IMG/VR virus record: IMGVR_UViG_2925919700_000003
Location: 1 to 13,319 of that record
Length of the DNA: 13,319 nt
Reading direction: 5' to 3' (one strand)
From: a virus
Taxonomy: Duplodnaviria; Heunggongvirae; Uroviricota; Caudoviricetes
In this document: positions 1 to 13,319 of the stretch, piece by piece
Numbering within the stretch: the stretch's first letter is position 1
Layout: the number at the start of each line of letters is the position of its first letter
Notes under the pieces: generated by a model
What the model saw: only the letters and a program-made list of their open reading frames with translations
Databases searched by the model: none
Told to the model about the DNA's origin: nothing
Position numbers and translations under genes: made by a program

Positions 1-1053
1 TTACGGGGTAATGCCAACCGCTGCCGCCACTTTGTCGCCACTTGGCAGCGTTGCCAGAGGATTGAAACGGAGCGCCGTTTCCAGATGATCCGGTGCCAGA
101 TGTGCGTAACGCATAGTCATTTTTATATCGTGGTGTCCGAGAATTTTTTGTAAGGCCAGAATGTTTCCACCCGACATCATGAAGTGCGCCGCAAACGTAT
201 GGCGCAGAACGTGTGTGAGTTGACCGCGAGGGAGCACGATAGACGTTTTTTCCATCACGGATAAAAATTGAAAATAGCAGTCTGTGAAGAAATTGAACCC
301 ATCAAGCGCCATGATCTCTTCGTAAAGCTCTTTACTGATAGGGATGCTTCTGTTTTTCTTCCCCTTCGTTCTTACAAAGGTAATTCGGTATTTGGTCACC
401 TGTGAACGAGTAAGATTTACGGCTTCTCGCCAGCGTGCGCCTGTGCTTAAGCATATCTTAACTACCAGTGCCAGAATTGGGTCCTGACGTTTGCAATCAG
501 CCAGTAATTCAACAATCTGCTCATGGGTAAGCCATGCCATCTCTTTTTCTGCGATGGTGAATTTTCGCATGTTCTCCAGTGGGTTCGGATACGACCATTC
601 GCCCAGGCGGGATAGTTCGCTAAAAACACTACTTAGATAGCTTTGCTCCAGGTTAATGGTGACCGGGCTTGCTCCTTTCTTCCATTTCTCGCTGAAGTAG
701 ATCTCACCTGTCAGGCGTTTATCTCGATAGTGGGCAAACATTTTAGAGGTGAGATCAGTTGCAAGGGGATTGCCCAGAGCGTCAACCATCAGCAGCAATT
801 TGTCATAGACATGCTGCCCAGCAGTCAGTGATTTACCATGTAGTTTGAACCATAGCTCAACCACGTCTTTCAGTGTTCGACGATCCACTGATTCACCTAG
901 CCAGGGCTTTGCTTCGGTTTCTTCCATCGTGTGACGCTCAAAAGCCAGTGCTTCGCCTTTGGTGGCGAATTGTTTACGCACACGACGCCCACTACGTCCG
1001 GCGGGGTAACATTCGCAAAGCCATTTTCCTGTGGTGAGTTTTCGTACAGCCAT
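1..1053 (-). CDS. int: Tyrosine recombinase / phage integrase, P2-186 family
   Basis: 350 aa from ATG at 1051-1053 (minus strand), preceded by GGAGGG; the longer 376-aa ORF start is unlikely. N-terminus MAVRKLTTGKW...RKQF resembles the P2 Int N-terminus; C-terminal region has R..HxxR...Y signature (LRHTFAAHF, MTMRYAHL). Stop is the first triplet of the window. Confidence 0.9.
   Translation of the reverse strand: MAVRKLTTGKWLCECYPAGRSGRRVRKQFATKGEALAFERHTMEETEAKPWLGESVDRRTLKDVVELWFKLHGKSLTAGQHVYDKLLLMVDALGNPLATDLTSKMFAHYRDKRLTGEIYFSEKWKKGASPVTINLEQSYLSSVFSELSRLGEWSYPNPLENMRKFTIAEKEMAWLTHEQIVELLADCKRQDPILALVVKICLSTGARWREAVNLTRSQVTKYRITFVRTKGKKNRSIPISKELYEEIMALDGFNFFTDCYFQFLSVMEKTSIVLPRGQLTHVLRHTFAAHFMMSGGNILALQKILGHHDIKMTMRYAHLAPDHLETALRFNPLATLPSGDKVAAAVGITP
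19..40. repeat. Left copy of 22-bp direct repeat, putative attL core, lying inside the 3' end of int
   Basis: cgctgccgccaCtttgtcgcca at 19-40 recurs as cgctgccgccaTtttgtcgcca at 10465-10486 (21/22 identical). The two copies bracket the phage-like block: int stop at 1-3, ogr stop at 10462-10464. Confidence 0.6.
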
Positions 1054-1241
1054 AAAAAATGCCCTCCAATAGAGAGCATTTTTACTGTATGTATAACCAG
1101 TGTCAATGTATGAAATCCTGCGACCATACATCTCACTGAAGCCATAATGAAGTAGGCTATTCTTTTTGCTATGTGATCATGTAACTTTTGCGGTTAACCT
1201 GTGGCTCATTTTTATTTTAGGCGCAGATATAAAAGCAAAAG

Positions 1242-1433
1242 TTATCGTGAGTTTTTAGTACAGATTTTTTTGGATTTACTAATAGTTCCATCATTGCAAA
1301 CGAATTTGCCATCAGAGGTACAGTGAGAAACACCTCCCTTTTTCCCTGAGCAGGGATAATTTCTAGCATAGGTAGCTAGTGGGTTTAATAACAAAGAACA
1401 TGACAAAACCACAAAAAATACCTTACCAAGCAT
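1242..1433 (-). CDS. Small secreted cysteine-rich peptide (63 aa precursor), function unknown
   Basis: Strong SD (GGGAGGA) 5-6 nt upstream of ATG at 1431-1433. N-terminus [23 protein letters not shown] looks like a Sec signal peptide (possible AxA-type cleavage after TYA; an alternative VLSC lipobox is possible). Predicted mature ~40 aa part is basic with 4 Cys. Same strand as cI and int, between them; AT-rich. Confidence 0.55.
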
Positions 1434-1448
1434 AATTTCCTCCCGGTA

Positions 1449-2024
1449 CTATTTAACATACTTGACTGTTAAGCTTATAATTTTACCAATTATTTCAATG
1501 TCTTCTATCTTACATTCGAAGGCTCTGTTTCCACCCTCGACGAAGATTCTTCCACCGGGTAAACGAGTAATGTCACGGATCGTTATTTCGCCATCAATAC
1601 TTATTACCCATTTACCATCACGTATATCATCAAATTCCTTATCACAAATAAATTCAGAATTATTATCTGTGATTACAAAAAGATTCTTGAATGCCGACGG
1701 TAGAAATTCTCTATCGAAAATATAAAAACCGTCTTCACACAAGGCCCCATCAGATAATACATATTTAGCAACTTCCATAGTATTTGTATTACCTGAAGTT
1801 TGCTTTGAACCATGCCCGGTTGTGAGCCAATTAAGCGAGGTTCCTGTTTCAAGGGCGCACTGGATTACCCATTCTGCTGGGAATGAGTCACGCATGTAGC
1901 GTGTGGCGAGTGTACTTTTAGAGATTCCTAAATGATCGCACAACGCCTGTCGAGTCTTGAATCCATAAGCTTCTACCATGCGCTCTATGGCGCCTCGTCC
2001 GCCTTTCTCCAAATTCATGGTCAC
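1449..2024 (-). CDS. cI: Phage 186 CI-like immunity repressor
   Basis: 191 aa; N-terminal HTH region (EAYGF...LCDHLGISKSTLATRY...CALETGTSLNWLTTGHG) and C-terminal region (W.ISIDGEITIR.ITRLPGG...GG..FEC.IEDIE) match my recollection of 186 CI. GGAG precedes the ATG. Divergent from apl-cII. Confidence 0.85.
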   Translation of the reverse strand: MTMNLEKGGRGAIERMVEAYGFKTRQALCDHLGISKSTLATRYMRDSFPAEWVIQCALETGTSLNWLTTGHGSKQTSGNTNTMEVAKYVLSDGALCEDGFYIFDREFLPSAFKNLFVITDNNSEFICDKEFDDIRDGKWVISIDGEITIRDITRLPGGRIFVEGGNRAFECKIEDIEIIGKIISLTVKYVK

Positions 2025-2042
2025 TCCAAGTGAACTTTTATC

Positions 2043-2071
2043 TTGACGATTTCACTGTGCGATCGTATGTT
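2043..2071 (+). promoter_or_regulatory. Candidate sigma70 lytic promoter (pR-like) for apl-cII
   Basis: TTGACG (2043-2048), 17-nt spacer, TATGTT (2066-2071), about 70 nt upstream of the apl ATG. Short inverted repeats (GTGAA...TTCAC) flank the -35 and could be operator half-sites. Position fits a 186-type switch region. Confidence 0.4.
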
Positions 2072-2143
2072 TATGGTGTTCACAAAATACAAACGATCCG
2101 TATTCGTCCTGATTAATCATCATTAAACGAGGAATGTTGCATC

Positions 2144-2365
2144 ATGAGACCTAACATTTCAATCACTCTTACCACGCCTCATGTGACTATTGAACGCTAT
2201 AGCGAGCTGACAGGGCTATCCATCGATACCATCAATGATATGTTGGCTGATGGACGCCTTATCCGTCACCGTCTGCGCAAAGATAAAAAACGCGAAAAAG
2301 TGATGATCAACATAGCAGCAATGACCGTTGATGCGCTTTCAGAATGCAATCTAAACCTTAATTAG
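2144..2365 (+). CDS. apl: Apl/Cox-like excisionase and transcriptional regulator (small HTH protein)
   Basis: 73 aa, first gene of the rightward operon divergent from cI, with probable HTH ([19 protein letters not shown]); GAGGA upstream. Assignment is mainly positional. Confidence 0.7.
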
Positions 2366-2397
2366 TTCGATTCTGAAATACATCAGAGGCATTGACC

Positions 2398-2907
2398 ATG
2401 TTTGATTACCAAGTTTCCAAACATCCACATTTTGATGAAGCCTGTCGTGCATTTGCACTGCGCCACAATCTGGTGCAACTGGCAGAACGTGCAGGCATGA
2501 ATGTGCAGATTCTGCGGAACAAGCTGAACCCAGCTCAGCCTCATTTATTAACCGCACCAGAAATCTGGCTGCTTACCGATCTGACTGAAGATTCAACGCT
2601 GGTAGATGGTTTTCTGGCACAGATTCATTGTCTGCCATGTGTACCGATTAATGAGGTGGCAAAAGAGAAACTGCCACATTACGTCATGAGTGCAACCGCA
2701 GAGATCGGGCGTGTTGCTGCAGGTGCGGTGTCTGGCGATGTAAAAACCTGTGCCGGTCGTCGTGATGCTATCAGCAGCATTAACTCTGTAACACGACTGA
2801 TGGCGCTGGCGGCTGTTTCATTGCAGGCCCGTTTACAGGCTAATCCTGCGATGGCGAGTGCAGTTGATACCGTGACTGGCCTCGGTGCTTCATTTGGTTT
2901 GCTGTGA
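2398..2907 (+). CDS. cII: Phage 186 CII-like lysogeny establishment activator
   Basis: 169 aa from ATG at 2398 (ORF-track start 2392 is TTG). N-terminus [24 protein letters not shown]...[11 protein letters not shown] matches my recollection of 186 CII; follows apl as in 186. Confidence 0.8.
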
Positions 2908-2914
2908 GGTGCTT

Positions 2915-3115
2915 ATGCTGACGAAAGAACCATCATTTGCATCGCTGCTGGTTAAACAAAGCCCGGCAATGCATTACGGTCACGGCTGGATCATGGGGGA
3001 GGATGGTAAACGCTGGCATCCGTGCCGTTCACAAGATGAATTGCTGGCAGAACTATCTACGAAAAAACGGGGGAACAAATGGCTATTGAAGGCACTGCAG
3101 CAACTGTTCCATTAA
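2915..3115 (+). CDS. Small early-operon protein (66 aa), at the position of 186 fil
   Basis: ATG at 2915 with GAGGTG just upstream, starting 8 nt after the cII stop. No motif recognised. Overlaps the next ORF by 37 nt. Confidence 0.4.
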   Translation: MLTKEPSFASLLVKQSPAMHYGHGWIMGEDGKRWHPCRSQDELLAELSTKKRGNKWLLKALQQLFH

Positions 3116-3420
3116 GCCCCGGTGAACGCCTGAATGGACTTAATCACATTGCGGAGTTAAGGGCGAAAGTTTTTGGCCTGAATATTGAGTCAGAGCTTGA
3201 GCGGTTTATTAAAGATATGCGTGATCCATGGGATATCAATAATGAACAAAATAAAAGGGCACTGGCTGCCATATTCTTTATGGCAAAAATTCCAGCTGAA
3301 CGTCATAGCATCAGCATTAATGAGCTGACCACTGACGAAAAGCGGGAGTTGATTAAAGCAATGAATCATTTTCGTGCAGTGGTGAGCTTATTTCCCAGAC
3401 GGCTAACCATGCCGAATTAA
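3079..3420 (+). CDS. Hypothetical phage early protein (113 aa)
   Basis: ATG at 3079 preceded by a GGGGGA purine run; long ORF in the early operon; no recognised motif. Confidence 0.5.
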   Translation: MAIEGTAATVPLSPGERLNGLNHIAELRAKVFGLNIESELERFIKDMRDPWDINNEQNKRALAAIFFMAKIPAERHSISINELTTDEKRELIKAMNHFRAVVSLFPRRLTMPN

Positions 3421-3487
3421 CCAACTAATGAAATTAATGGCGTAAACCCGCCGGGCATCCCTTTATCTAAATTCAGGAGAATTGATT

Positions 3488-3721
3488 ATGCGTAATATTG
3501 AAACCCTCACGACTAAAACCGGACCGGATGACGCAGGGCTTAATATTTTACTGACAGAGGCTCGTCTGGAAGAACGCCGGGCAAGGGCTGAAGCAATGGC
3601 TGCTCGCCTTGATAGCCTGGCGTGTTATATCTCATCCCGCCAGCTAAACCACGTGGAAGCGGCAGAACTGCTGCGCGTGACTGCTGAAGCAATCCAGAAC
3701 GAAGCGCAGGAGATCCACTAA
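3488..3721 (+). CDS. Hypothetical phage early protein (77 aa)
   Basis: AGGAGA 7 nt upstream of ATG at 3488; its stop TAA overlaps the next gene's ATG (TAATG at 3719-3723), suggesting translational coupling. Confidence 0.55.
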   Translation: MRNIETLTTKTGPDDAGLNILLTEARLEERRARAEAMAARLDSLACYISSRQLNHVEAAELLRVTAEAIQNEAQEIH

Positions 3722-3948
3722 TGGCTGATGCAATGGATCTCGTACAGCAGCGCGTTGAAGAAGAACGCCAGCGCCATATCCGTGCAGCCCGTGCCAAATC
3801 ACCGGGCGTGTCACGCGTACTTTGCATTGAATGTGAAGCGCCAATTCCGCCAGCACGACGCCGCGCCATTCCGGGAGTGCAGCTTTGCATTACCTGTCAG
3901 GAAATCGCAGAACTGAAAGGCAAACATTACAACGGAGGTGCTGTATGA
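3721..3948 (+). CDS. TraR/DksA-family C4 zinc-finger protein
   Basis: 75 aa with CIECEAPIPPARRRAIPGVQLCITCQ (CxxC-x17-CxxC), typical of DksA/TraR-type zinc fingers found in P2-like early regions. Stop overlaps the dam start (ATGA at 3945-3948). Confidence 0.75.
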   Translation: MADAMDLVQQRVEEERQRHIRAARAKSPGVSRVLCIECEAPIPPARRRAIPGVQLCITCQEIAELKGKHYNGGAV

Positions 3949-4724
3949 GCACCATCCTGAAATGGGCGGGAAATAAAACCGCCATTATGCCAGAACTGAA
4001 AAAATACCTTCCTGCTGGCCCGCGACTGGTTGAACCTTTCGCGGGTTCCTGTGCTGTGATGATGGAAACGGATTATCCCAGCTATCTGGTTGCGGATATT
4101 AATCCTGATTTAATCAACCTCTATAAAAAGGTTGCCGCTGATTGTGAATCGTTTATATCTCGCGCCAGAGTTTTATTTGAGATCGCAAACAGGGAGGTGG
4201 CTTATTACAACATAAGGCAGGAGTTTAACTGCTCAACTGAAATTACTGATTTCATGAAAGCGGTATATTTCCTGTATCTCAATCGTCACGGTTACCGTGG
4301 TTTATGTCGCTATAACAAGAGCGGGCATTTCAACATTCCCTACGGTAATTATAAAAATCCGTATTTCCCTGAAAAAGAACTTCGCACATTTGCAGAAAAA
4401 GCCCAGCGAGCAACGTTTATCTGCGCCAGCTTTGATGAAACGCTGACGATGTTGAAGGCGGGAGATGTGGTGTATTGCGATCCGCCATATGACGGTACGT
4501 TTTCCGGTTATCACACTGATGGTTTCACTGAAGATGACCAGTATCACCTGGCATCCGTTCTTGAACATCGGTCATCAGAAGGACATCCGGTCATTGTTTC
4601 TAACAGTGACACATCCCTGATCCGTTCGCTGTATCGCAATTTTACTCACCACTATATCAAGGTAAAACGCAGCATCGGTGTGGCAGCTGGCGAGGGTACT
4701 GGAGCTGAAGGTGTACGCGGATGA
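3945..4724 (+). CDS. dam: DNA adenine (N6) methyltransferase, Dam/D12 class; C-terminus probably replaced at a deletion junction
   Basis: [11 protein letters not shown] start, PFAGS AdoMet-binding motif and DPPY catalytic motif ([10 protein letters not shown]). GGAGG 7 nt upstream. After ...[10 protein letters not shown] the last ~16 aa ([15 protein letters not shown]) do not look like a Dam C-terminus, and a tail-fibre reading frame begins at about 4678. Confidence 0.8.
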
Positions 4725-5748
4725 TCAGATGGCAAAACATCTTGCCGCACCGGACCCGCATTCACAGTATGCACAGAAAGAAAGTCCTACGTTTACCGGG
4801 ACACCCAAAGCGCCAACGCCAGCGGCGGGGAATAACACCACGCAGGTTGCGACCACAGCGTTTGTTCAGGCTGCACTGACGGCTATTATTAATGATGCGC
4901 CAGCCACGCTGGACACGCTGAAAGAAATAGCCGTAGCCATTAACAATGATCCGAAATTCAGTACCACCATTAACAATGCGCTGGCACTGAAAGCTCCGCT
5001 GTCGAGTCCGGCACTCACCGGAACGCCAACAGCCCCCACGGCGGCGCAGTCGGTCAATAATACACAGATTGCCACTACGGCTTTTGTGAAATCGGCGATT
5101 GCAGGAATGGTGGGTTCTGCACCTGCGGCACTGGATACACTGAACGAACTGGCGGCGGCACTGGGGAATGACCCGAACTTTGCCACGACAATGCTTAATG
5201 CACTGGCAGGTAAACAACCGCTGGACAATACGCTGACTAATTTGAGTGGAAAGGATGTAGCTGGTCTTCTCGCATACCTTGGTCTGGGGGAAACGATAAA
5301 TAAAGCCTCCGGAGCTATGCAGAAATCAGCTAATGGTTCTGATATTTCTGATATATCAGCCTTCCGAAATGCGCTCCGGTTAGGGGCCGCTGCAACACGA
5401 GATGTTGGAGGGGATAATGCCTCGAAGTTACTGGATTTAGACAGTTTCAGGTCAATGATGTCAGGTAATGGCTACATCTACATTCCATGCATTGCGACGA
5501 CAGGAAACCCGGTGAAACTTATGTTGCAGTGGGGAACGGTGGCAACACAAAAGGGAGCTGATGCTGGATATGCCTTACCATTTGCTTTTCCCTATGCAGG
5601 CTTGTTTGCGACCGGAAACCGTGGAACATCTGGCTACAATGCCGCGATGAATGTGCGTATTGCCAGCAGAACGCATATCAGTATTCAGAACTGGTCGCCA
5701 TCCGGAGAGGGCACCGAAGATTGTTGTTTTATCGCGCTGGGGTATTAA
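4678..5748 (+). pseudogene. Side tail fibre protein (P2 gpH / lambda Stf-like), N-terminally truncated fragment
   Basis: Open frame with no convincing start/RBS, overlapping the dam 3' end. Contains fibre repeats ([31 protein letters not shown]...NTTQ[VI]ATTAFV and TLNELAAALGNDPNFATTM.NALAGKQP). The tail-attachment N-terminal domain is absent. Confidence 0.75.
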
Positions 5749-5750
5749 GA

Positions 5751-6164
5751 ATGAATAAATTTTATAAAGGCTCTTTCTATCCGGAAGCACTAAAAGAGGT
5801 ATATATCAGCGCTGGCTCATGGCCTGAAAACGGCGTTGATGTTGATGATGAAACAATGGCAATTTACACGGGTGTCGTACCGCAGGGTAAAATGCTAGGT
5901 TCCGATAAAAATGGCAACCCTGCTTGGGTGGATATTCCGCCTCTTTCAACGGAGCAATTAGTTGCCATTATGGAGCAGAAGAAAGGGAAACTTCGTTCGA
6001 TAGCCGATGCTGAAATTAGCTGGCGACAGGATGCCGTTGATGAAGGGATAGCGACGAAAGAGGAAACTGCCGCTTTAACTGAATGGAAGAAATACCGTGT
6101 GCTGTTGATGCGTGTTGATACATCACTAGCCCCCAATATTGATTGGCCCGAAGTGCCTGTTTGA
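5751..6164 (+). CDS. Tail fibre assembly protein (Tfa / gpG-like)
   Basis: 137 aa from ATG at 5751, immediately after the fibre stop. C-terminal region (W..YR.LLMRVDTSLAPNIDWPEVP) is Tfa-like. Confidence 0.75.
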   Translation: MNKFYKGSFYPEALKEVYISAGSWPENGVDVDDETMAIYTGVVPQGKMLGSDKNGNPAWVDIPPLSTEQLVAIMEQKKGKLRSIADAEISWRQDAVDEGIATKEETAALTEWKKYRVLLMRVDTSLAPNIDWPEVPV

Positions 6165-6181
6165 GTATTTTCAATACGTAT

Positions 6182-6202
6182 TAGGGGGGAGTATCCCCCC
6201 TA
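6182..6202. terminator. Palindromic hairpin between convergent tfa and acyltransferase genes (bidirectional terminator candidate)
   Basis: tagggggga / tcccccctа perfect 9-bp inverted repeat with 3-nt loop, flanked by A/T-rich sequence on both sides; sits in the 43-bp gap between two convergent stop codons. Confidence 0.6.
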
Positions 6203-6207
6203 AAATA

Positions 6208-7347
6208 TTATGCTGTCTTGAACTGTAAAAGCACTTTACTAATTCTTCCCGACAGTAATACAGCTGGTTTATCGAAAAGACGATAGAAACCCCAGGACAC
6301 TGGTAAGCTTATGGCTACGCAAATTATTATTGATATGAGGCTTGCTGCTAATTCATCAATGCGTAAGGACAAGTAGTTAAATGATGGTATTGCTACCGCG
6401 TAAATTAAAACCATTTGTAATAAATATAATGAGAAAGATATCTTGCCTAAAAATATTGCTGGTTTTGTAGATAGTATATTGTTAACCCCATTGCTCCTCA
6501 ATGCAAATAAAACAATAAAAATACCAGAGAATAAAAACAGGGTGTACTCAGTTAAGTAATTATTAATATCTGAGAAAATGCTTGAATAGGCATATGATTG
6601 TACTTTATATCCAGCAAAGTATAATCCAAGAATTAGGATTGCGACAGATGATTTTTTTGATAGTTTAATATTTGTCTTGTATATTACGGAGCCAGACATA
6701 AAACAAGCCAATCCATAGTATAGTGCGTCGCCATCATTGTAATAGCCTAGTGATAGGAATATAAGAAATACAATCGCTGGAAAAAGTGCGGAGTTTGTTT
6801 TCTTGGATATAAATAGTAAAGCCAGAATATATGATCCGATGAGTTCAATTTTCATGGTCCATAATACCCAGTTATAGGTCTTAACACCATCCCCACCAAA
6901 AGCACCTATTAATCCTGTGAATATGGCACCATGTAAGCTGTAATCAAAGGTTCCTAGATTTGAGGCCCATTCGGAAATGCCAGTTCTATTTATATCTATG
7001 TGTGAGTATACAGCCCATCCAATCAAACAAGAGAAAAATACTGGCACCATTAATCTTATATATCTTTTTAAAAGGAATGCAAAGAAAAGAATTGAATCAA
7101 ATCGCTTAGAGAAACTTGAAGATAAAACAAAACCACTTAATACAAAGAATACGTAGACTCCAGCAGAGCCAGAGTAAAAAAAAGAGAAAGGAGAGTTCAT
7201 GATATAACTCTCAAAAGAATACCTCATGGACTCTGCTGCATGCATATATGGGTAGAAAGTATATGCAAGATGTGAGAAAAACACAGCAAGACAGGCGATG
7301 CCTCTGAGACCGTCCGCATTACTATTGTGTTCTTGAGCAACACTCAT
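6208..7347 (-). CDS. Acyltransferase family 3 integral membrane protein (O-antigen/LPS acetylase-like); cargo gene
   Basis: 380 aa from ATG at 7345-7347 (ORF-track start at 7395 is TTG). Polytopic and very hydrophobic; N-terminal GLRGIACLAVFFSHL is typical of acyltransferase-3 (OafA/Oac-like) enzymes. Clearly more AT-rich than the flanking phage and host DNA. Opposite strand to the surrounding late genes. Confidence 0.75.
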   Translation of the reverse strand: MSVAQEHNSNADGLRGIACLAVFFSHLAYTFYPYMHAAESMRYSFESYIMNSPFSFFYSGSAGVYVFFVLSGFVLSSSFSKRFDSILFFAFLLKRYIRLMVPVFFSCLIGWAVYSHIDINRTGISEWASNLGTFDYSLHGAIFTGLIGAFGGDGVKTYNWVLWTMKIELIGSYILALLFISKKTNSALFPAIVFLIFLSLGYYNDGDALYYGLACFMSGSVIYKTNIKLSKKSSVAILILGLYFAGYKVQSYAYSSIFSDINNYLTEYTLFLFSGIFIVLFALRSNGVNNILSTKPAIFLGKISFSLYLLQMVLIYAVAIPSFNYLSLRIDELAASLISIIICVAISLPVSWGFYRLFDKPAVLLSGRISKVLLQFKTA

Positions 7348-7380
7348 GAAAATTAACCTATGTTTAGAGTAATGTAGCCT

Positions 7381-7404
7381 AAAACGCCTAATCAAAAATA
7401 GGCG
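7381..7404 (-). promoter_or_regulatory. Small hairpin plus U-run in the 5' leader of the acyltransferase gene (attenuator or terminator-like)
   Basis: Minus strand reads cgccta-tttttgat-taggcg followed by tttt, about 34 nt upstream of the acyltransferase ATG. Stem is only 6 bp, so weak. Confidence 0.25.
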
Positions 7405-7418
7405 GATACCTTTGAGGC

Positions 7419-7454
7419 CATTCTAGCCTGAGGTTACATTCTAGCCTGAGGTTA
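7419..7454. repeat. Perfect 18-bp tandem direct repeat (cattctagcctgaggtta x2)
   Basis: Two identical adjacent 18-bp units at 7419-7436 and 7437-7454, in the region between the acyltransferase start and the late promoter. Confidence 0.9.
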
Positions 7455-7577
7455 ATCAAGATACCATTATGCTTTCATATCCAATCTGGCCGGAAGCGTC
7501 GCATCTGTTTCTCGCTAAGTATCAACGTAGTAAGCATCCATCAGTTCACTGATCATTCACCTTCTTAAAACTGCTAT

Positions 7578-7595
7578 TGTGCCAGCGCTGGCACA
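7578..7595 (+). promoter_or_regulatory. Ogr/Delta-type activator binding site (TGT-N12-ACA dyad) of a P2-family late promoter (P_F-like)
   Basis: tgtgccagcgctggcaca is a perfect 18-bp palindrome fitting the TGT-N12-ACA late-promoter operator; its centre is about 84 nt upstream of the sheath-like start codon at 7670, compatible with the centre lying at about -55 from the transcription start. Confidence 0.6.
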
Positions 7596-7669
7596 GGGTT
7601 AAACGCGTGCGCCGCGTGCATATCAACCAGAACATAGGCACACCCCCTGTAAACCGGAGAGATTGCCTT

Positions 7670-7732
7670 ATGGCTCAGGATTACCACCACGGGGTGCGCG
7701 TTGTTGAAGTCAACGAGGGCAACGATGAGTGA
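7670..7732 (+). pseudogene. Remnant of tail sheath gene (gpFI-like), first ~17 codons only
   Basis: ATG at 7670 encodes MAQDYHHGVRVVEVNEG..., matching my recollection of the P2 sheath N-terminus (MSDYHHGVQVLEINEG); the frame stops after 20 codons at TGA 7730-7732, overlapping the tape-measure ATG. Confidence 0.55.
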
Positions 7733-8723
7733 TAACAACCTGCGTCTGCAGGTCATTCTTAATGCGGTTGACAAGCTCACCCGCCCATTTCGATCTGCGC
7801 AGGCCAGTTCAAGAGAACTGGCTGCTGCTGTCAAAAAATCCCGCGATGCAATAAAGCAGCTTGATCAGGCCGGGAGCAGTCTGGACAGCTTCCGAAAGCT
7901 GCAGGCAGAAAATCAGAAATTAGGCGACAGGCTGAACTATGCCCGCCAGCGTGCAAATTTGCTCAGTCAGGAACTGGGAGCGATGGGGCCGCCTTCGCAA
8001 CGTCAGGTTGTTGCTCTGGGCCGTCAACGGCTGGCTGTTCAGCGCCTGGAAGAACGCCAGAAAAAGCTGCAGCAGCAGACGGCGCTTGTGCGTGCTGAAC
8101 TGTACCGGGCAGGAATTTCTGCGAAAGACGATGCGGGAGCAACTGCCCGTTTAGCCCGTGAAACATCACGTTATAACCAGGAACTTTCGAAACAGGAGGC
8201 GCGGCTGAAGCGACTGGGGGAAGCTCAGCGCAGGATGAATGCAGCGCGTGCCAGTTATGCCCGTTCGCTGGAGGTGCGTGATCGTATTGCAGGTGCCGGA
8301 GCCACCACCACGGCTGCAGGGCTGGCAATGGGCGCACCAGTGATGGCGGCAGTAAAAAGCTATACCAGCATGGAAGATGCCATGAAAGGTGTGGCAAAGC
8401 AGGTCAATGGTCTGCGTGACGATAATGGCAACCGCACTGCACGTTTTTATGAAATGCAGGATGCCATCAAGGCTGCCAGCGAACAGTTGCCGATGGAAAA
8501 CGGTGCGGTGGATTTCGCTGCACTGGTTGAAGGTGGTGCGCGCATGAACGTCGCAAACCCTGACGACAGTTGGGAAGATCAGAAACGTGACCTGCTGGCC
8601 TTCGCCAGTACGGCAGCAAAGGCGGCAACAGCCTTTGAGCTGCCAGCGGATGAACTGTCAGAAAGTCTGGGGAAAACCGACGTCCGTCCACGCAGTTTCT
8701 GGGACCGGAAAACGACATGCTGA
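7725..8723 (+). pseudogene. Tail tape measure protein (gpT-like), N-terminal ~330 aa, truncated
   Basis: ATG at 7725 (MSDNNLRLQVILNAVDKLTRPF...), GAGGG upstream; coiled-coil-like Q/R/A-rich N-terminal region. Frame ends at 8723, far too short for a P2-size tape measure, and a gpU-like frame opens at 8654. Confidence 0.7.
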
Positions 8724-9058
8724 CGCTTTCCGGTGTTCTTATGCCGGAAATAACAGGCGGCAGGCTGTCGTTGCTGGCACTGGAGCAGATGGCAGAACAG
8801 GGGAAAGCATGGCCCCTGATTGAAGGCAGCGGCACGATTTACGGCATGTATGTGATTGAGGGACTGAATCAGACTAAAACGGAGTTTTTCCGCGACGGTA
8901 TGCCGCGCCGGATTGAGTTCACCCTGTCGCTCAAACGAGTGGATGAATCCCTGTCCGATATGTTCGGTGATCTCAGTGCGCAACTGAATAATCTGCAGGA
9001 CACGGCAACGTCTGCCTTAAGCGATATCAGTAAAACGGTGGGAGGGCTGCTGTCGTGA
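8654..9058 (+). pseudogene. Tail protein gpU-like, N-terminally truncated fragment
   Basis: Frame open from 8654 (first ATG at 8717); ...FLGPENDMLTLSGVLMPEITGGRLSLLALEQMAEQGKAWPLIEGSGTIYGMYVIEG... resembles the P2 gpU central/C-terminal region. Its stop overlaps the gpD start (GTGA at 9055-9058). Confidence 0.6.
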
Positions 9059-10155
9059 ATTTCAGCTCTGAACTGCTTAACAAAGGCAACAAAACTCCCG
9101 CATTCAGCATCAGTATTGAGGGCAGGGATATCACCACTGTGCTGGATAACCGCCTGATGAGTTTGACGCTGACGGATAACCGGGGCTTTGAAGCGGACCA
9201 GCTTGATCTGGAGCTGGACGACGCTGACGGAAAAATCGTGCTGCCGCGCCGTGGTGCGGTCATTACGCTGGCGCTGGGCTGGAAGGGGCAGCCGCTTTTC
9301 CCTAAAGGGGCATTCACAGTGGACGAGATTGAACACACTGGCGCACCGGACCGCCTGACTATCCGGGCGCGAAGTGCTGATTTTCGGGAAACGCTGAATA
9401 CCCGCCGTGAAAAATCGTGGCATAAGACCACCGTCGGGGAAGTGGTGAAGGAAATAGCCGCGCGGCACAAGCTGAAGATGGCACTGGGTAAAGACCTGTC
9501 AGATAAACCCGTGGAGCATATAGACCAGACTAATGAGAGTGACGGCAGTTTTCTGATGCGGCTGGCGCGACAGTACGGTGCCATCGCGTCGGTGAAAAAT
9601 GGCAATCTGTTATTCATCCGGCAGGGGCAGGGCAAAAGCGCCACTGGTAAACCTCTGCCAGTGATCACTATCACACGCAAGGACGGCGACAGTCACCGAT
9701 TTACCCTGGCAGATCGCGGAGCCTACACGGGCGTAATTGCCAGCTGGTTGCATACCCGCGAACCTGCGAAGAAAGAAAGCACCACGGTGAAGCGTAAGCG
9801 CAGAACTAAGAAGCAGAAGAAAGAGCCAGAAGCGAAGCAGGGCGATTACCTGGTGGGTACGGATGAAAACGTGCTGGTACTTAATCGCACTTATGCCAAC
9901 CGGAGCAACGCCGAACGAGCGGCGAAAATGCAGTGGGAACGCCTGCAACGCGGCGTTGCGTCATTTTCGCTACAACTGGCAGAAGGGCGGGCAGATCTCT
10001 ACACGGAAATGCCAGTGAAAGTCAGTGGCTTTAAACAGCCGATAGATGATGCGGAATGGACCATTACGACTCTGACGCATACCGTCAGTCCGGATAACGG
10101 TTTTACGACCAGTCTGGAGCTTGAAGTGAGGATTGATGATTTCGAAATGGAATGA
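9055..10155 (+). CDS. D: Tail protein gpD-like (late tail gene D)
   Basis: 366 aa from GTG at 9055 with GGGAGGG about 8 nt upstream; sits between U and ogr as in P2; similar in size to P2 gpD as I remember it. Confidence 0.75.
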   Translation: MNFSSELLNKGNKTPAFSISIEGRDITTVLDNRLMSLTLTDNRGFEADQLDLELDDADGKIVLPRRGAVITLALGWKGQPLFPKGAFTVDEIEHTGAPDRLTIRARSADFRETLNTRREKSWHKTTVGEVVKEIAARHKLKMALGKDLSDKPVEHIDQTNESDGSFLMRLARQYGAIASVKNGNLLFIRQGQGKSATGKPLPVITITRKDGDSHRFTLADRGAYTGVIASWLHTREPAKKESTTVKRKRRTKKQKKEPEAKQGDYLVGTDENVLVLNRTYANRSNAERAAKMQWERLQRGVASFSLQLAEGRADLYTEMPVKVSGFKQPIDDAEWTITTLTHTVSPDNGFTTSLELEVRIDDFEME

Positions 10156-10245
10156 TTCTTCGCAATAGAGAACTTTTAAGTTTGCAAAATGGAATAATGC
10201 GATATCATTATTGTGAATTTAGCAAAAATGGGGAGAGCTCGAAAA

Positions 10246-10464
10246 ATGATGATTTGCCCACTGTGTGGAAGTACCGCCCATACTCGCAGCAGTTTTCAGG
10301 TATCTTCATTGACCAAAGAGCGTTACAACCAGTGCCAGAACATTAACTGCAGCCATACTTTTGTTACCCATGAAACTTTTGTTCGTTCGATTGCTACGCC
10401 AAAAGAGTCAAATCCGGTTCAGCCGCATCCAATGAAATCAGGACAGGTGGCGCTCTCTCTTTGA
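10246..10464 (+). CDS. ogr: Ogr/Delta-family zinc-finger late-gene transcriptional activator
   Basis: 72 aa from ATG at 10246 with GGGGAGAG 8 nt upstream. MMICPLCGSTAHTRSS...KERYNQCQNINCSHTF has the Cx2C-x22-Cx4C arrangement and the KERYxQCQN motif characteristic of P2 Ogr / 186 B. Confidence 0.9.
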   Translation: MMICPLCGSTAHTRSSFQVSSLTKERYNQCQNINCSHTFVTHETFVRSIATPKESNPVQPHPMKSGQVALSL

Positions 10465-10486
10465 CGCTGCCGCCATTTTGTCGCCA
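10465..10486. repeat. Right copy of 22-bp direct repeat, putative attR core
   Basis: cgctgccgccattttgtcgcca immediately follows the ogr stop codon; 21/22 identical to 19-40. Confidence 0.6.
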
Positions 10487-10543
10487 TCGTTAAAAAACAG
10501 TGCTTCTAACATCATGATTTTAAACAGCATAAATTTCAGGCAA

Positions 10544-10587
10544 CAAAAAACCCATCAACCTTGAACCGAAATGGCGGGGTTGATGGG
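10544..10587 (-). terminator. Rho-independent terminator downstream of ybjL
   Basis: 10-bp perfect stem cccatcaacc / ggttgatggg (10551-10560 and 10578-10587) with 17-nt loop; on the minus strand it is followed by TTTTTTG; about 110 nt past the ybjL stop. Confidence 0.55.
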
Positions 10588-10699
10588 CTCCACAAAATGG
10601 GGACATCAAAGAAAAGCAGTGGCATTAATTAAGACTGATGCCCTGCGGAAAAGTTCTGCGGTTGTGCAAAAAAATTTCATTTTCAGGGCAACTTCAGTT

Positions 10700-12385
10700 T
10701 TATCCTAATCCTGGCCATACCATGACGATGATTGTCCCTGCCAGCGTCAGCAGGACGTTGGCGATTGCGTAGGTGCCCGCATAGCCCAGCGCAGGGATGT
10801 TACTGCGAGCTGTATCACTGATGATCTCCATTGCCGGCGCGCAGGTGCGTGCGCCCATCATTGCGCCGAACAACAGTGCGCGGTTCATTCGCAATACATA
10901 AGCACCGAACAAGAAACAGATAACCACGGGCACAAGACTGACAATTAATCCGGCAATCAACATCTGACCGCCAATCGCGCCCAGGCCGTTATTAATACCG
11001 CTACCGGCGCTCAGACCAACGCCTGCCATAAACACCATCAAGCCGAACTCTTTCACCATGCTTAATGCACCTTGCGGAATGTAACCGAAGGTCGGGTGGT
11101 TAGCACGCATAAAGCCCAGCATAATTCCGGCGAATAACAACCCGGCAGCGTTCCCCATGCCGAAACTGAATGTGCTGAACTGGAAGGTGATCATCCCGAT
11201 CATCAGCCCAATAACAAAGAAGGCGCAAAATGCCAGCAGGTCAGTGACCTGGCTGTGAATCGAGATAAAGCCGATGCGATCGGCGATGGTTTTTACGCGA
11301 CGGGCATCACCGCTGACTTGTAAAACGTCACCTTTGTTAAGCACGACGTTGTCATCTATCGGCATCTCAATCTGGCTACGAATGACGCGGTTAAGGAAGC
11401 AACCGTGATCGGTCAACTTCAGTTGTGCGAGACGTTTACCTACAGCGTTATGGTTTTTAACGACCACTTCTTCAGTGACGATACGCATGTCGAGAAGGTC
11501 ACGATCGAAAACTTCTTTACCGTTACGGAAGCTGGGATCGAGTCGGGCATGGGCGTCGGGATAGCCTACCAACGCTATTTCATCGCCCATTTGTAGCACG
11601 GCATCACCGTCTGGATTTGCCAGAATCCCGTTACGTCGAATACGTTCAATGTAGCAGCCGGTTTGTCGATAAATACCCAGTTCACGCAGATTTTTGCCGT
11701 CGGTCCAGGCCACCAGCTCCGGGCCGACGCGATAGGCGCGGATCACCGGTAAATAAACCTTACGGTTGGCATCAGTGTCCAGGCCACGTTCGCGGGCGAT
11801 TTGCTGGGCGCTGGTCTGTAAGTCCTGATGCTGCAATTTCGGCAAGTAACGCGCACCAACAATCAAACTCACCAGACCGATTAAATAGGTTAAGGCATAC
11901 CCGAGGCTCAGATTATCCAGTGCCAGTGAGAGCTGCCTGCTTTCCATGCCGGAATGACGCAGTGTATCGCCAGCACCGACCAGAACCGGTGTCGACGTCA
12001 TAGAGCCTGCTAACATACCGGCCGTCAGGCCAATATCCCAGCCAAACAGCTTACCTAACCCTAAGGCGATCACCAGCGCACTGCCAACCATCACCAGTGC
12101 TAACATTAGGTAATTTTTCCCATCGCGAAAAAAAATGGAAAAAAAGTTCGGTCCGGCTTCGACCCCGACGCAGAAAATAAACAGCATAAAGCCAAGATTA
12201 AGCGCATCGGTGTTAATGCTGAAATGTTGTTGGCCTAATAACAGCGATACGACTAAAACGCCAATGGAATTACCCAGTTGGATCGAACCAAGTCGTAACT
12301 TTCCGAGACATAGCCCAAGCGCGAGGACCACAAATAATAACAGAATGTAATTCCCATTTAACAATTCGGCGACGTTTATATTCAC
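10700..12385 (-). CDS. ybjL: Putative transport protein YbjL (AAE-family transporter with central TrkA-C/RCK-type domains)
   Basis: 561-aa polytopic membrane protein; sequence ([24 protein letters not shown]...) recognised as E. coli YbjL. GTG start in the ORF track, no clear SD. Confidence 0.9.
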
Positions 12386-12654
12386 GGAGGCTAACTTCTT
12401 GTTTACTAGTAAGCTGTTGAAAGAAATGGTAATTTACGATAATGTTTTTTACCAGAATTCAGGGCGCAGATTCATTCAGCGCACCTAAACGATAGTAAAG
12501 TAACAATATATTTTACTAGTGTAATCACATTAGGTATCAACGGCTATATGAATTGCGTTGGCCTATATTAGCATGGAATGCGAAGCGGCTTTATCTTACT
12601 GAACGCCACACTGGCGAAAAATGTGTTCGATAGACGCAGTGTCAGGAGGAACGA

Positions 12655-13032
12655 GTGAAACATAAACAACGTTGGGCGGGGGCAATCTGCTGTTTTGTCC
12701 TCTTCATTGTGGTGTGCCTTTTTCTGGCGACGCACATGAAAGGCGCTTTTCGGGCTGCCGGGCATCCTGAAATCGGCTTGCTATTTTTCATTCTTCCTGG
12801 AGCAGTCGCCAGCTTCTTTTCACAGCGTAGAGAAGTCCTGAAACCTCTGTTTGGCGCAATGCTGGCGGCACCCTGTTCGATGCTCATTATGCGGCTGTTT
12901 TTTTCACCGACGCGCTCATTCTGGCAAGAGCTGGCATGGTTACTAAGCGCGGTGTTCTGGTGTGCGCTGGGGGCACTGTGTTTCTTATTTATCAGTAGTT
13001 TGTTTAAACCACAGCACAGAAAAAATCAGTAA
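12655..13032 (+). CDS. ybjM: Inner membrane protein YbjM
   Basis: 125 aa, hydrophobic, GTG start with AGGAGGA upstream; position between ybjL and grxA matches the E. coli K-12 gene order. Confidence 0.8.
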   Translation: MKHKQRWAGAICCFVLFIVVCLFLATHMKGAFRAAGHPEIGLLFFILPGAVASFFSQRREVLKPLFGAMLAAPCSMLIMRLFFSPTRSFWQELAWLLSAVFWCALGALCFLFISSLFKPQHRKNQ

Positions 13033-13052
13033 AGCCCTCAACGCGAGGGCTT
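13021..13052 (-). terminator. Rho-independent terminator of grxA (hairpin shared with convergent ybjM)
   Basis: 8-bp stem aagccctc / gagggctt with 5-nt loop (13032-13052); on the minus strand followed by a T-run (complement of aaaaa at 13021-13025); lies just past the grxA stop. Confidence 0.6.
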
Positions 13053-13061
13053 GTCAGACGA

Positions 13062-13319
13062 TCAGGCGTCCAGATTTTCTTTCACCCATGCAGCAAAATC
13101 GGTATAGCCGCCGATATGTTGCTGATCGACAAAAATCTGCGGCACGGTTTCTACGGGTTTACCTGCCTTTTGTTGTAGATCTTCTTTAGTGATCCCTTCC
13201 GCACGAATATCTACATACTGATACTGAAAATCATCGCGTTCATTGCTCAATTTCTCAGCCAGATCTTTTGCACGCACACAGTAAGGGCAACCCGAACGAC
13301 CAAAAATAACGGTTTGCAT
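13062..13319 (-). CDS. grxA: Glutaredoxin 1
   Basis: 85 aa, MQTVIFGRSGCPYCVRAKDLAEKL... with the CPYC active site; recognised as E. coli Grx1. The start codon is the last triplet of the window. Confidence 0.95.
   Translation of the reverse strand: MQTVIFGRSGCPYCVRAKDLAEKLSNERDDFQYQYVDIRAEGITKEDLQQKAGKPVETVPQIFVDQQHIGGYTDFAAWVKENLDA

Follow-up and report, generated by a model that had tools for sequence, protein, structure and literature searches.

What is a membrane acyltransferase gene doing between two late operons of a P2-like prophage? This question is raised by a stretch of Caudoviricetes DNA of 13,319 nucleotides (IMG/VR virus record IMGVR_UViG_2925919700_000003, positions 1 to 13,319), which is referred to here as the window. 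The phage element in it is a decayed P2/186-like prophage, heavily deleted in the window strain. Antisense to its late genes, a stand-alone acyltransferase-3 (AT3) gene lies between the tail-fibre assembly gene G and the late promoter of the sheath gene FI, which is where an earlier reading of the letters alone (the sequence-only reading) had placed it. The gene is variable phage cargo and not part of the phage core. On balance, the cassette probably serves lysogenic conversion: its product is predicted to O-acylate the exported O-antigen, which would alter the epitope and block phage adsorption. The features are listed in Table 1.

A variable acyltransferase gene at the junction of G and FI

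Assignment to the AT3 family is solid at the level of sequence. The domain named in the sequence-only reading was found by the Pfam profile Acyl_transf_3 (PF01757), which matches residues 10-352 with an E-value of 7.6e-26 and 91.4 bits (cut-off 31), covering profile positions 3-322 of 326. The PHROG family phrog_3333 ("O-acetyltransferase") matches with an E-value of 1.2e-29. RefSeq annotates the same coding sequence of 1140 nt in the four genomes that carry the gene (see below), and a mechanical call of the open reading frame (ORF) reaches further upstream, to a TTG at 7395. The ORF had been noted before, with a length of 380 residues, which has to be corrected by one. Three AT3 motifs are present, R15-X10-H26, R95-Y-I-R98 (RXXR) and S304-X3-Y308 (SXXXY), and their six residues are invariant across an alignment of 48 homologues. 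R-X10-H (in transmembrane helix 1) and RXXR (in transmembrane helix 3) are essential in AT3 proteins, and SXXXY is the third motif described (PMC9833829).

The AlphaFold2 model (predicted local distance difference test score, pLDDT, 89.6; predicted template modelling score, pTM, 0.89) has the ten-helix fold and resembles the acyl-CoA transmembrane acyltransferases HGSNAT and GWT1, whose structures are solved. The structural library BFVD gave a single match to the model, a viral protein of 637 aa. PF01757 is the only Pfam match above cut-off in the protein, and no SGNH domain was found. The protein is therefore a stand-alone AT3 like Oac of phage Sf6, not a fusion of the OafA/OatA type. None of the NCBIfam equivalogs matches, a sequence search against the PDB gave no matches, and no PADLOC defence-system model matches at E <= 0.01.

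The gene is far more AT-rich than its surroundings, as had been noticed from the letters. Its GC content is 0.351 (0.313 at third codon positions, GC3), compared to 0.475 for the window, 0.454 for G and 0.562 for the truncated tape-measure gene (T'). The lowest-GC stretch of 1140 bp in the whole window begins at 6151.

The gene is rare. Among 5,426 complete E. coli genomes it occurs in only four (PSS-15, tcmA_3, AREA_497 and MB06234), and the 256-bp region upstream of it is confined to the same four carriers. Homology to relatives with an empty junction restarts at about 7604 (7574 in one locus), so that the cargo segment extends from 6165 to about 7578-7603. A tblastn search against 50,697 deposited phages retrieved only Pantoea phage PA-1, with 29% identity.

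Two of the carriers, PSS-15 (prophage at ybjL) and tcmA_3 (prophage at ssrA), have apparently complete P2-like prophages, and the gene is found in three differently deleted remnants (AREA_497, MB06234 and the window). With most relatives devoid of the gene, it behaves as non-essential phage-borne cargo of the Oac type. The five alleles, including that of the window, differ by 0-2 nonsynonymous and no synonymous substitutions, and all ORFs are intact. With so few differences, a dN/dS test for selection is impossible. One of the remnant deletions ends just 375 bp from the gene, and an intact ORF in three differently deleted remnants is compatible with selective retention. The sequence-only reading had gone further, taking persistence of the gene through the loss of most morphogenesis genes as a sign that it is the selected payload. 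This argument is weak and finds no statistical backing. The gene is also present in the two apparently complete prophages, the fragment of the tail-fibre gene H (H'), G and a 17-codon stub of FI were retained as well, and the allele differences are too few for selection to be measured.

A comparison of the two apparently complete prophages indicates how the gene travels. From J to FII (J-I-H-G-AT3-FI-FII), PSS-15 and tcmA_3 are 99.5-100% identical (L098 versus L099, 10629-17251), while their head and lysis genes and the distal tail genes T, U and D are only 90-97% identical. The AT3 gene thus travels inside a recently exchanged fibre block, and, judged from these identities, the J-to-FII block of about 6.6 kb is a recent mosaic exchange.

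The junction itself is variable cargo territory, as anticipated in the sequence-only reading. It was surveyed in 80 IMG/VR contigs with a sheath protein at least 89% identical; in 46 of these, a gene for a tail-fibre assembly protein (TAP) lies on the plus strand upstream of the sheath gene. The junction is empty (106-350 bp) in about 16 of the 46, and about 22 have an invertible fibre segment that consists of a resolvase (serine recombinase) plus a fibre tip and a TAP gene, both inverted. A single large gene occupies the junction in six contigs, and all six genes code for AT3 proteins (PF01757, E-values from 1e-26 to 5e-33). Whether compared among themselves or with the window gene, they show at most 37% identity; their GC content is 0.31-0.36, and they occur in either orientation. 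Yet another AT3 gene is found at the junction in EC556 and in 17 further genomes. All are of swine origin, and they include two O139:H1 strains as well as isolates with ETEC (enterotoxigenic E. coli) in their names. The seven other AT3 types together are present in 29 of the E. coli genomes; with the window type, eight non-orthologous AT3 genes share one slot. On this comparative evidence, the G/FI junction of this P2-like lineage is a repeated host of unrelated AT3 genes. In two studies of P2 hotspots (PMC9122126; bioRxiv 10.64898/2026.02.27.708500), none of the terms acyltransferase, acetyltransferase, O-antigen and tail fiber was matched in the text.

One of the inverted fibre tips (L103 2978-3487) and the C-terminal end of the window H fragment (5240-5748) are nearly identical, so that the window fibre tip also circulates as a switchable alternative.

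Proposed function and competing explanations

We infer donor, acceptor, expression in the lysogen and phenotype as follows. The AT-rich "moron" cassette (6165-7603) would have been acquired horizontally into the P2-like G/FI junction. Because the gene is antisense between two Ogr-dependent late operons, it could use a promoter of its own in the lysogen, with the hairpin that is shared with G as the expected end of transcription. By homology, the inner-membrane enzyme would use cytoplasmic acyl-CoA as the donor of an acyl group (most likely acetyl), with R15, R95 and R98 binding the acyl-CoA and H26 as the predicted catalytic residue. The acyl group would pass via the central pore and, on the periplasmic side, be esterified to a hydroxyl group of a glycan sugar. 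The acceptor is most likely the host O-antigen, a rare, Wzm/Wzt-exported type of the O89/O101/O162 family; its modification would fall between export and ligation to lipid A-core. The expected outcome is an altered O-epitope and an adsorption block for phages that use the O-antigen, the parent phage included.

Acylation of the O-antigen is the best reading on account of two lines of evidence, the synteny with fibre and tailspike genes and the co-occurrence with one rare O-antigen cluster. Homologues are repeatedly found beside receptor-binding genes in otherwise different prophages. The closest (76% identity) adjoins the TAP gene of a prophage remnant with lambda-type terminase and portal and a Mu-type baseplate gene. 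Nucleotide homology of this cassette is not confined to the AT3 gene: it reaches into the TAP gene, over its last 145 nt, and is absent from the 5' region. A homologue with 62% identity occupies the same TAP/AT3/sheath junction in another P2-like phage, and one with 49% identity is from a Kluyvera prophage with a Mu-like baseplate. More distant homologues adjoin a glycine-rich fibre gene in a Serratia prophage (40% identity), are beside a tailspike remnant in Hafnia and near a tailspike gene in an A. baumannii prophage (both about 38-40%). In a neighbour-joining tree, the window protein falls into an Enterobacterales clade, and all examined members of this clade are prophage-borne.

The second line of evidence concerns the host. 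PSS-15 has an O-antigen cluster of the Wzm/Wzt type that belongs to the O89/O101/O162 family and includes genes for an additional methyltransferase and a large glycosyltransferase (658 aa). The whole cluster of 9.2 kb is present with about 100% identity in exactly four genomes, namely those that carry the AT3 gene. In the remaining 318 matching genomes, no more than 63% of the cluster is covered, and identity is 92-97% among the matches listed. The AT3 cassette thus appears to track one rare O-antigen cluster, which is suggestive. The O-antigen type of the window strain itself is assumed only from its 100%-identical relatives. Strains as close as PSS-15 and tcmA_3 at an unlinked locus of 19 kb (O27:H7 B4103-1, MB06101 and JNU) are among neither the AT3 carriers nor the genomes with the complete O-cluster, and AREA_497 and MB06234 are outside the 25 genomes closest at this locus. 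Synteny and co-occurrence suggest that the sequence-only reading was essentially right in proposing lysogenic conversion as a hedged hypothesis, and overall it is partly supported.

Several observations weigh against acylation of the O-antigen. PSS-15 and tcmA_3 are nearly identical at the 19-kb locus just mentioned, and the carriers are 99.5-100% alike in their ybjL flanks (0-0.5% difference); the co-occurrence with the O-cluster may thus be partly phylogenetic. The protein shows little identity to characterised enzymes (25.7% to Sf6 Oac over 300 aa; 28.6% to WecH over 63 aa; no significant similarity to OpgC). Because this applies to all characterised AT3 enzymes, a substrate cannot be transferred from them, and, as the sequence-only reading had stated, it is not readable from the letters. 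The Acinetobacter relatives (35-40% identity) are chromosomal, and in 37 of 80 GTDB species representatives the gene follows directly after pgaB-pgaC-pgaD on the same strand. The wider family is not limited to the O-antigen. A promoter and terminator scan found no sigma-70-like site upstream of the AT3 gene. The best candidate in a relaxed scan (ATGGTA-18-TAGAAT, 7467-7438) has 8/12 matches, with its -10 element inside a unit of the 18-bp repeat described below. Expression is only predicted, since no convincing upstream promoter was found. It should be noted that AT-rich foreign genes are often silenced.

The target may differ from the one proposed. The product could be an active enzyme for another envelope glycan, such as enterobacterial common antigen (ECA), osmoregulated periplasmic glucans (OPG), poly-N-acetylglucosamine (PNAG), colanic acid or capsule, the lipopolysaccharide core or peptidoglycan, with an effect on phages that is indirect or absent. 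We consider this unlikely, at something like one chance among several. It would fit the many glycans that are used by AT3 enzymes (ECA by WecH, OPG by OpgC, PNAG by IcaC; PMC9833829), the position of the Acinetobacter homologues after pgaB-pgaC-pgaD and the distance from Oac. Against it speak the consistent linkage of the gene to fibre and tailspike genes, the co-occurrence with one rare O-antigen cluster, and the eight non-orthologous AT3 genes in one slot, which fit a hypervariable target. PNAG is down-weighted as a substrate because the pga-linked copies are monophyletic in the neighbour-joining tree and the window protein belongs to a separate clade, the examined members of which are prophage-borne.

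Less probable still is a silent passenger gene that was of use to the phage in the past, is now unexpressed in a defective prophage and is too young to have decayed. The failure to find a promoter that satisfies the scan would be expected for such a gene. The near-identity of the five alleles argues for a young lineage, and the useless neighbours H', the FI stub, T' and the fragment of U (U') were kept too. A passenger would, however, not be expected to have an intact ORF in five copies, among them three independently deleted remnants, one with a deletion endpoint so close to the gene. In addition, all catalytic residues are retained and both intact phages carry the gene. Retention of the catalytic residues also speaks against non-catalytic superinfection exclusion at the membrane, in a role analogous to that of P2 Fun(Z), which blocks T5. 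Slot and orientation are those of fun(Z), and an AT3 is an inner-membrane protein. Nevertheless, we judge this explanation to be very improbable, because the catalytic motifs are fully conserved across the clade and the protein has neither similarity to Fun(Z) (E-value 0.12) nor a PADLOC match.

Returning to acylation of the O-antigen as the preferred reading, it is tempting to extend it to the junction as a whole. The junction could be a dedicated AT3 exchange slot, with each AT3 matched to a fibre tip and an O-antigen type, and tip, chaperone and masking enzyme moving together as a "recognise-and-mask" module. We offer this as a speculation that is rather doubtful at present. Less likely is a variant in which the AT3 acylates a polymer other than the O-antigen, such as PNAG, as may be envisaged from the pga-linked relatives in Acinetobacter.

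If the O-antigen is acylated, a rare E. coli O-antigen would exist in the carriers in a serologically and chemically new form, and the acylation would explain resistance of carrier strains to phages that use that antigen. With eight unrelated AT3 genes at a single site next to the fibre genes of P2-like phages that are near-identical, a simple genomic marker is available. It would pair receptor-binding modules with the surface sugars that they target, which would be useful for host-range prediction and for serotyping. If AT3 genes and fibre tips are indeed matched, the AT3 type could predict host range and O-antigen chemistry, and the window cassette would predict an acylated variant of the O89/O101/O162 family that has yet to be described.

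Some observations were made on related loci. Among the Acinetobacter loci (L012, L013 and L020-L097; e.g. L012 2177-7128), the pga-linked AT3 gene has the appearance of a conserved fifth member of the PNAG locus, and its product may acylate PNAG at hydroxyl groups (O-acylation). A second AT3 paralogue in Acinetobacter lies between an EamA transporter gene and a pair of genes for an amidohydrolase and a TonB receptor. In the O-antigen region of PSS-15 (L186 2514-21080), a second set of genes downstream of gnd codes for two GT2 proteins, a protein with a lysyl-PG-synthase-like domain, "capsular biosynthesis" proteins, a hypothetical protein of 926 aa and a GtrA-family protein. This gene set could be a further glycan-modification module.

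Flanking elements and the prophage remnant

Table 1. Features of the window around the AT3 gene and in the prophage remnant, in order of position
Feature	Position	Strand	Remarks
Integrase gene	1-1131		part of the prophage remnant
CI gene	1449-2024		part of the prophage remnant
dam methylase gene	joined at 4694-4698		nearly full length; joined by deletion to the 3' two-thirds of H
Tail-fibre gene H, 3' part	4695-5748	+	fibre tip, Gp53-like_C; PF21882, E 7.7e-08
Tail-fibre assembly gene G	5751-6164	+	Caudo_TAP; PF02413, E 2e-37; convergent with the AT3 gene
Variable cargo segment	6165-7603		hairpin, AT3 gene and 5' region; at the G/FI junction
Hairpin, GC-rich	6181-6203		perfect 10-bp arms (6181-6190 and 6194-6203), 3-nt loop; between the stop codons of G and the AT3 gene
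AT3 gene	6208-7347	-	stand-alone acyltransferase-3, 379 aa, about 10 transmembrane helices; intact ORF, ATG at 7347
AT3 5' region	7348-7578	-	expected place of the lysogen promoter
Tandem duplication, 18 bp	7419-7454		CATTCTAGCCTGAGGTTA, two copies, 100% identical
TGT-N12-ACA dyad	7579-7596	+	TGTGCCAGCGCTGGCACA; Ogr/Delta-type activator site of the sheath (F) late promoter
Sheath gene FI, stub	7671-7722	+	first 17 codons; fused by deletion to the start of the tape-measure gene T
ybjL	10700-12385		E. coli chromosome
ybjM	12655-13032		E. coli chromosome

The non-coding elements delimit the cassette. The hairpin is stable (dG about -19 kcal/mol, z -4.2), and no T-run follows it on either strand, which is why it was not called by the terminator scan. 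Homologous cassettes have different, unrelated hairpins at the equivalent place, and a terminator is annotated at the corresponding position in the records of P2 and Sf6. The hairpin is therefore probably a bidirectional transcription stop common to G and the AT3 gene. The sequence-only reading had described a palindromic terminator belonging to the AT3 gene. The perfect palindrome stands; it lacks a U-tract and is, in all probability, shared with G.

The tandem repeat had also been recognised correctly as perfect. It is, by comparison of the alleles, a recent polymorphic duplication and not a conserved element: the 18-bp unit has two copies in the window and AREA_497 and one in MB06234, PSS-15 and tcmA_3. 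Each unit reads TAGAAT on the minus strand. The 5' region as such is not common to the 76%-identical cassette (L004).

The late-promoter dyad, 93 nt upstream of the FI start codon, is the right boundary of the cargo segment. All 79 of 79 related P2-like loci have the dyad at -87 to -94 from the sheath gene, and the pF activator site of P2 is annotated at the equivalent place. Between the dyad and the FI ribosome-binding site, a C-run (7644-7648) is 5 C long in the window, one fewer than the 6 C of AREA_497 and MB06234. An Rfam scan of 6000-7800 found no RNA element. A sub-threshold match to IS009 (20.9 bits versus a gathering threshold of 117) at 6000-6127, the 3' end of G, has an E-value of 0.029 and is almost certainly due to chance.

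The backbone of the window is the E. coli chromosome. The H fragment is at least 99.2% identical to nt 465 to the end of H from the intact prophages, and G is annotated as "tail fiber assembly protein" in all four carrier genomes. The FI stub was defined by alignment with AREA_497, MB06234 and EC556. T is in turn fused to the 3' part of U, and D and ogr are also present.

The closest complete genome is MB06234, with 100% identity over flanks of 4,698 nt and 3,921 nt and with other internal deletions. The dam'::H' junction of the window is within 1 nt of the terminase'::H' junction of MB06234 (L002 12350), and the left partners differ. In the T-U-D region, the deletions are mutually exclusive (window, T nt 952 to U nt 98; MB06234, T nt 1695 to D), although the flanks are 100% identical. 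One deletion endpoint has been used repeatedly in the window and MB06234.

Related prophages at the ybjL site have additional cargo at other positions. AREA_497 codes for a PtuB HNH system, an AAA ATPase and the reverse transcriptase of a retron (L001 1154-4406), MB06234 has a SieB-family gene (L002 9834-10379), and EC556 has an FRG-domain gene between an S-like gene and V (L003 7773-8708).

Relation to known systems

Phage-borne AT3 O-acetylases that adjoin tailspike genes have been known since Sf6. The window cassette is a new example of this known type of phage cargo and involves no new principle or mechanism. Oac of Sf6 and OacB, OacC and OacD of Shigella prophages are, like the window protein, stand-alone AT3 proteins of temperate phages without an SGNH domain. 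In Sf6 as in the window, the AT3 gene is convergent with a receptor-binding gene, with a hairpin between them. OacC of Shigella is likewise located at the end of a tail module (PMC4206707). The phages differ: Sf6 is a P22-like podovirus with the slot next to int/attP, whereas the window prophage is from a P2-like myovirus with the slot between two late operons. The likely target differs as well, Oac acting on the rhamnose backbone in Shigella, while a Wzm/Wzt-type O-antigen is predicted for the window AT3. The identity given above does not support orthology to a characterised Oac enzyme.

The closest positional counterpart is fun(Z) of P2, as the sequence-only reading had proposed. In the P2 record, fun(Z) has the same slot and the same antisense orientation, after G and the terminator of the V operon and before the pF activator site and FI. 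It is also non-essential cargo, and it is a case of lysogenic conversion. Fun(Z) has 528 aa, is unrelated to the AT3 protein by BLASTP and blocks T5 by an unrelated mechanism (P2 record annotation). The protein from P2 (L184 3179-4762) has no Pfam match at E <= 0.01.

OafA and OafB (GtrC) of Salmonella and OatA share the AT3 domain and the motifs R-X10-H and RXXR with the window protein. In these enzymes, AT3 is fused to a periplasmic SGNH domain that follows an eleventh helix, whereas the window protein consists of the AT3 domain only. OafA sits on a phage remnant (PMC7380047). In the Salmonella Paratyphi C prophage SPC-P1, the AT3 gene ORF16 has a GC content of 31.65% and follows directly after the tailspike gene ORF15 (PMC3022927), an arrangement similar to that in the window; SPC-P1 differs from the window prophage in having a P22-like tailspike and module order, not a P2-like one.

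HGSNAT and GWT1, which the model resembles in fold, are eukaryotic, have 13-15% identity to the window protein, carry extra domains and catalyse N-acetylation or inositol acylation. Both use cytoplasmic acyl-CoA to acylate a sugar on the opposite side of a membrane, which is the reaction type proposed here for the window AT3.

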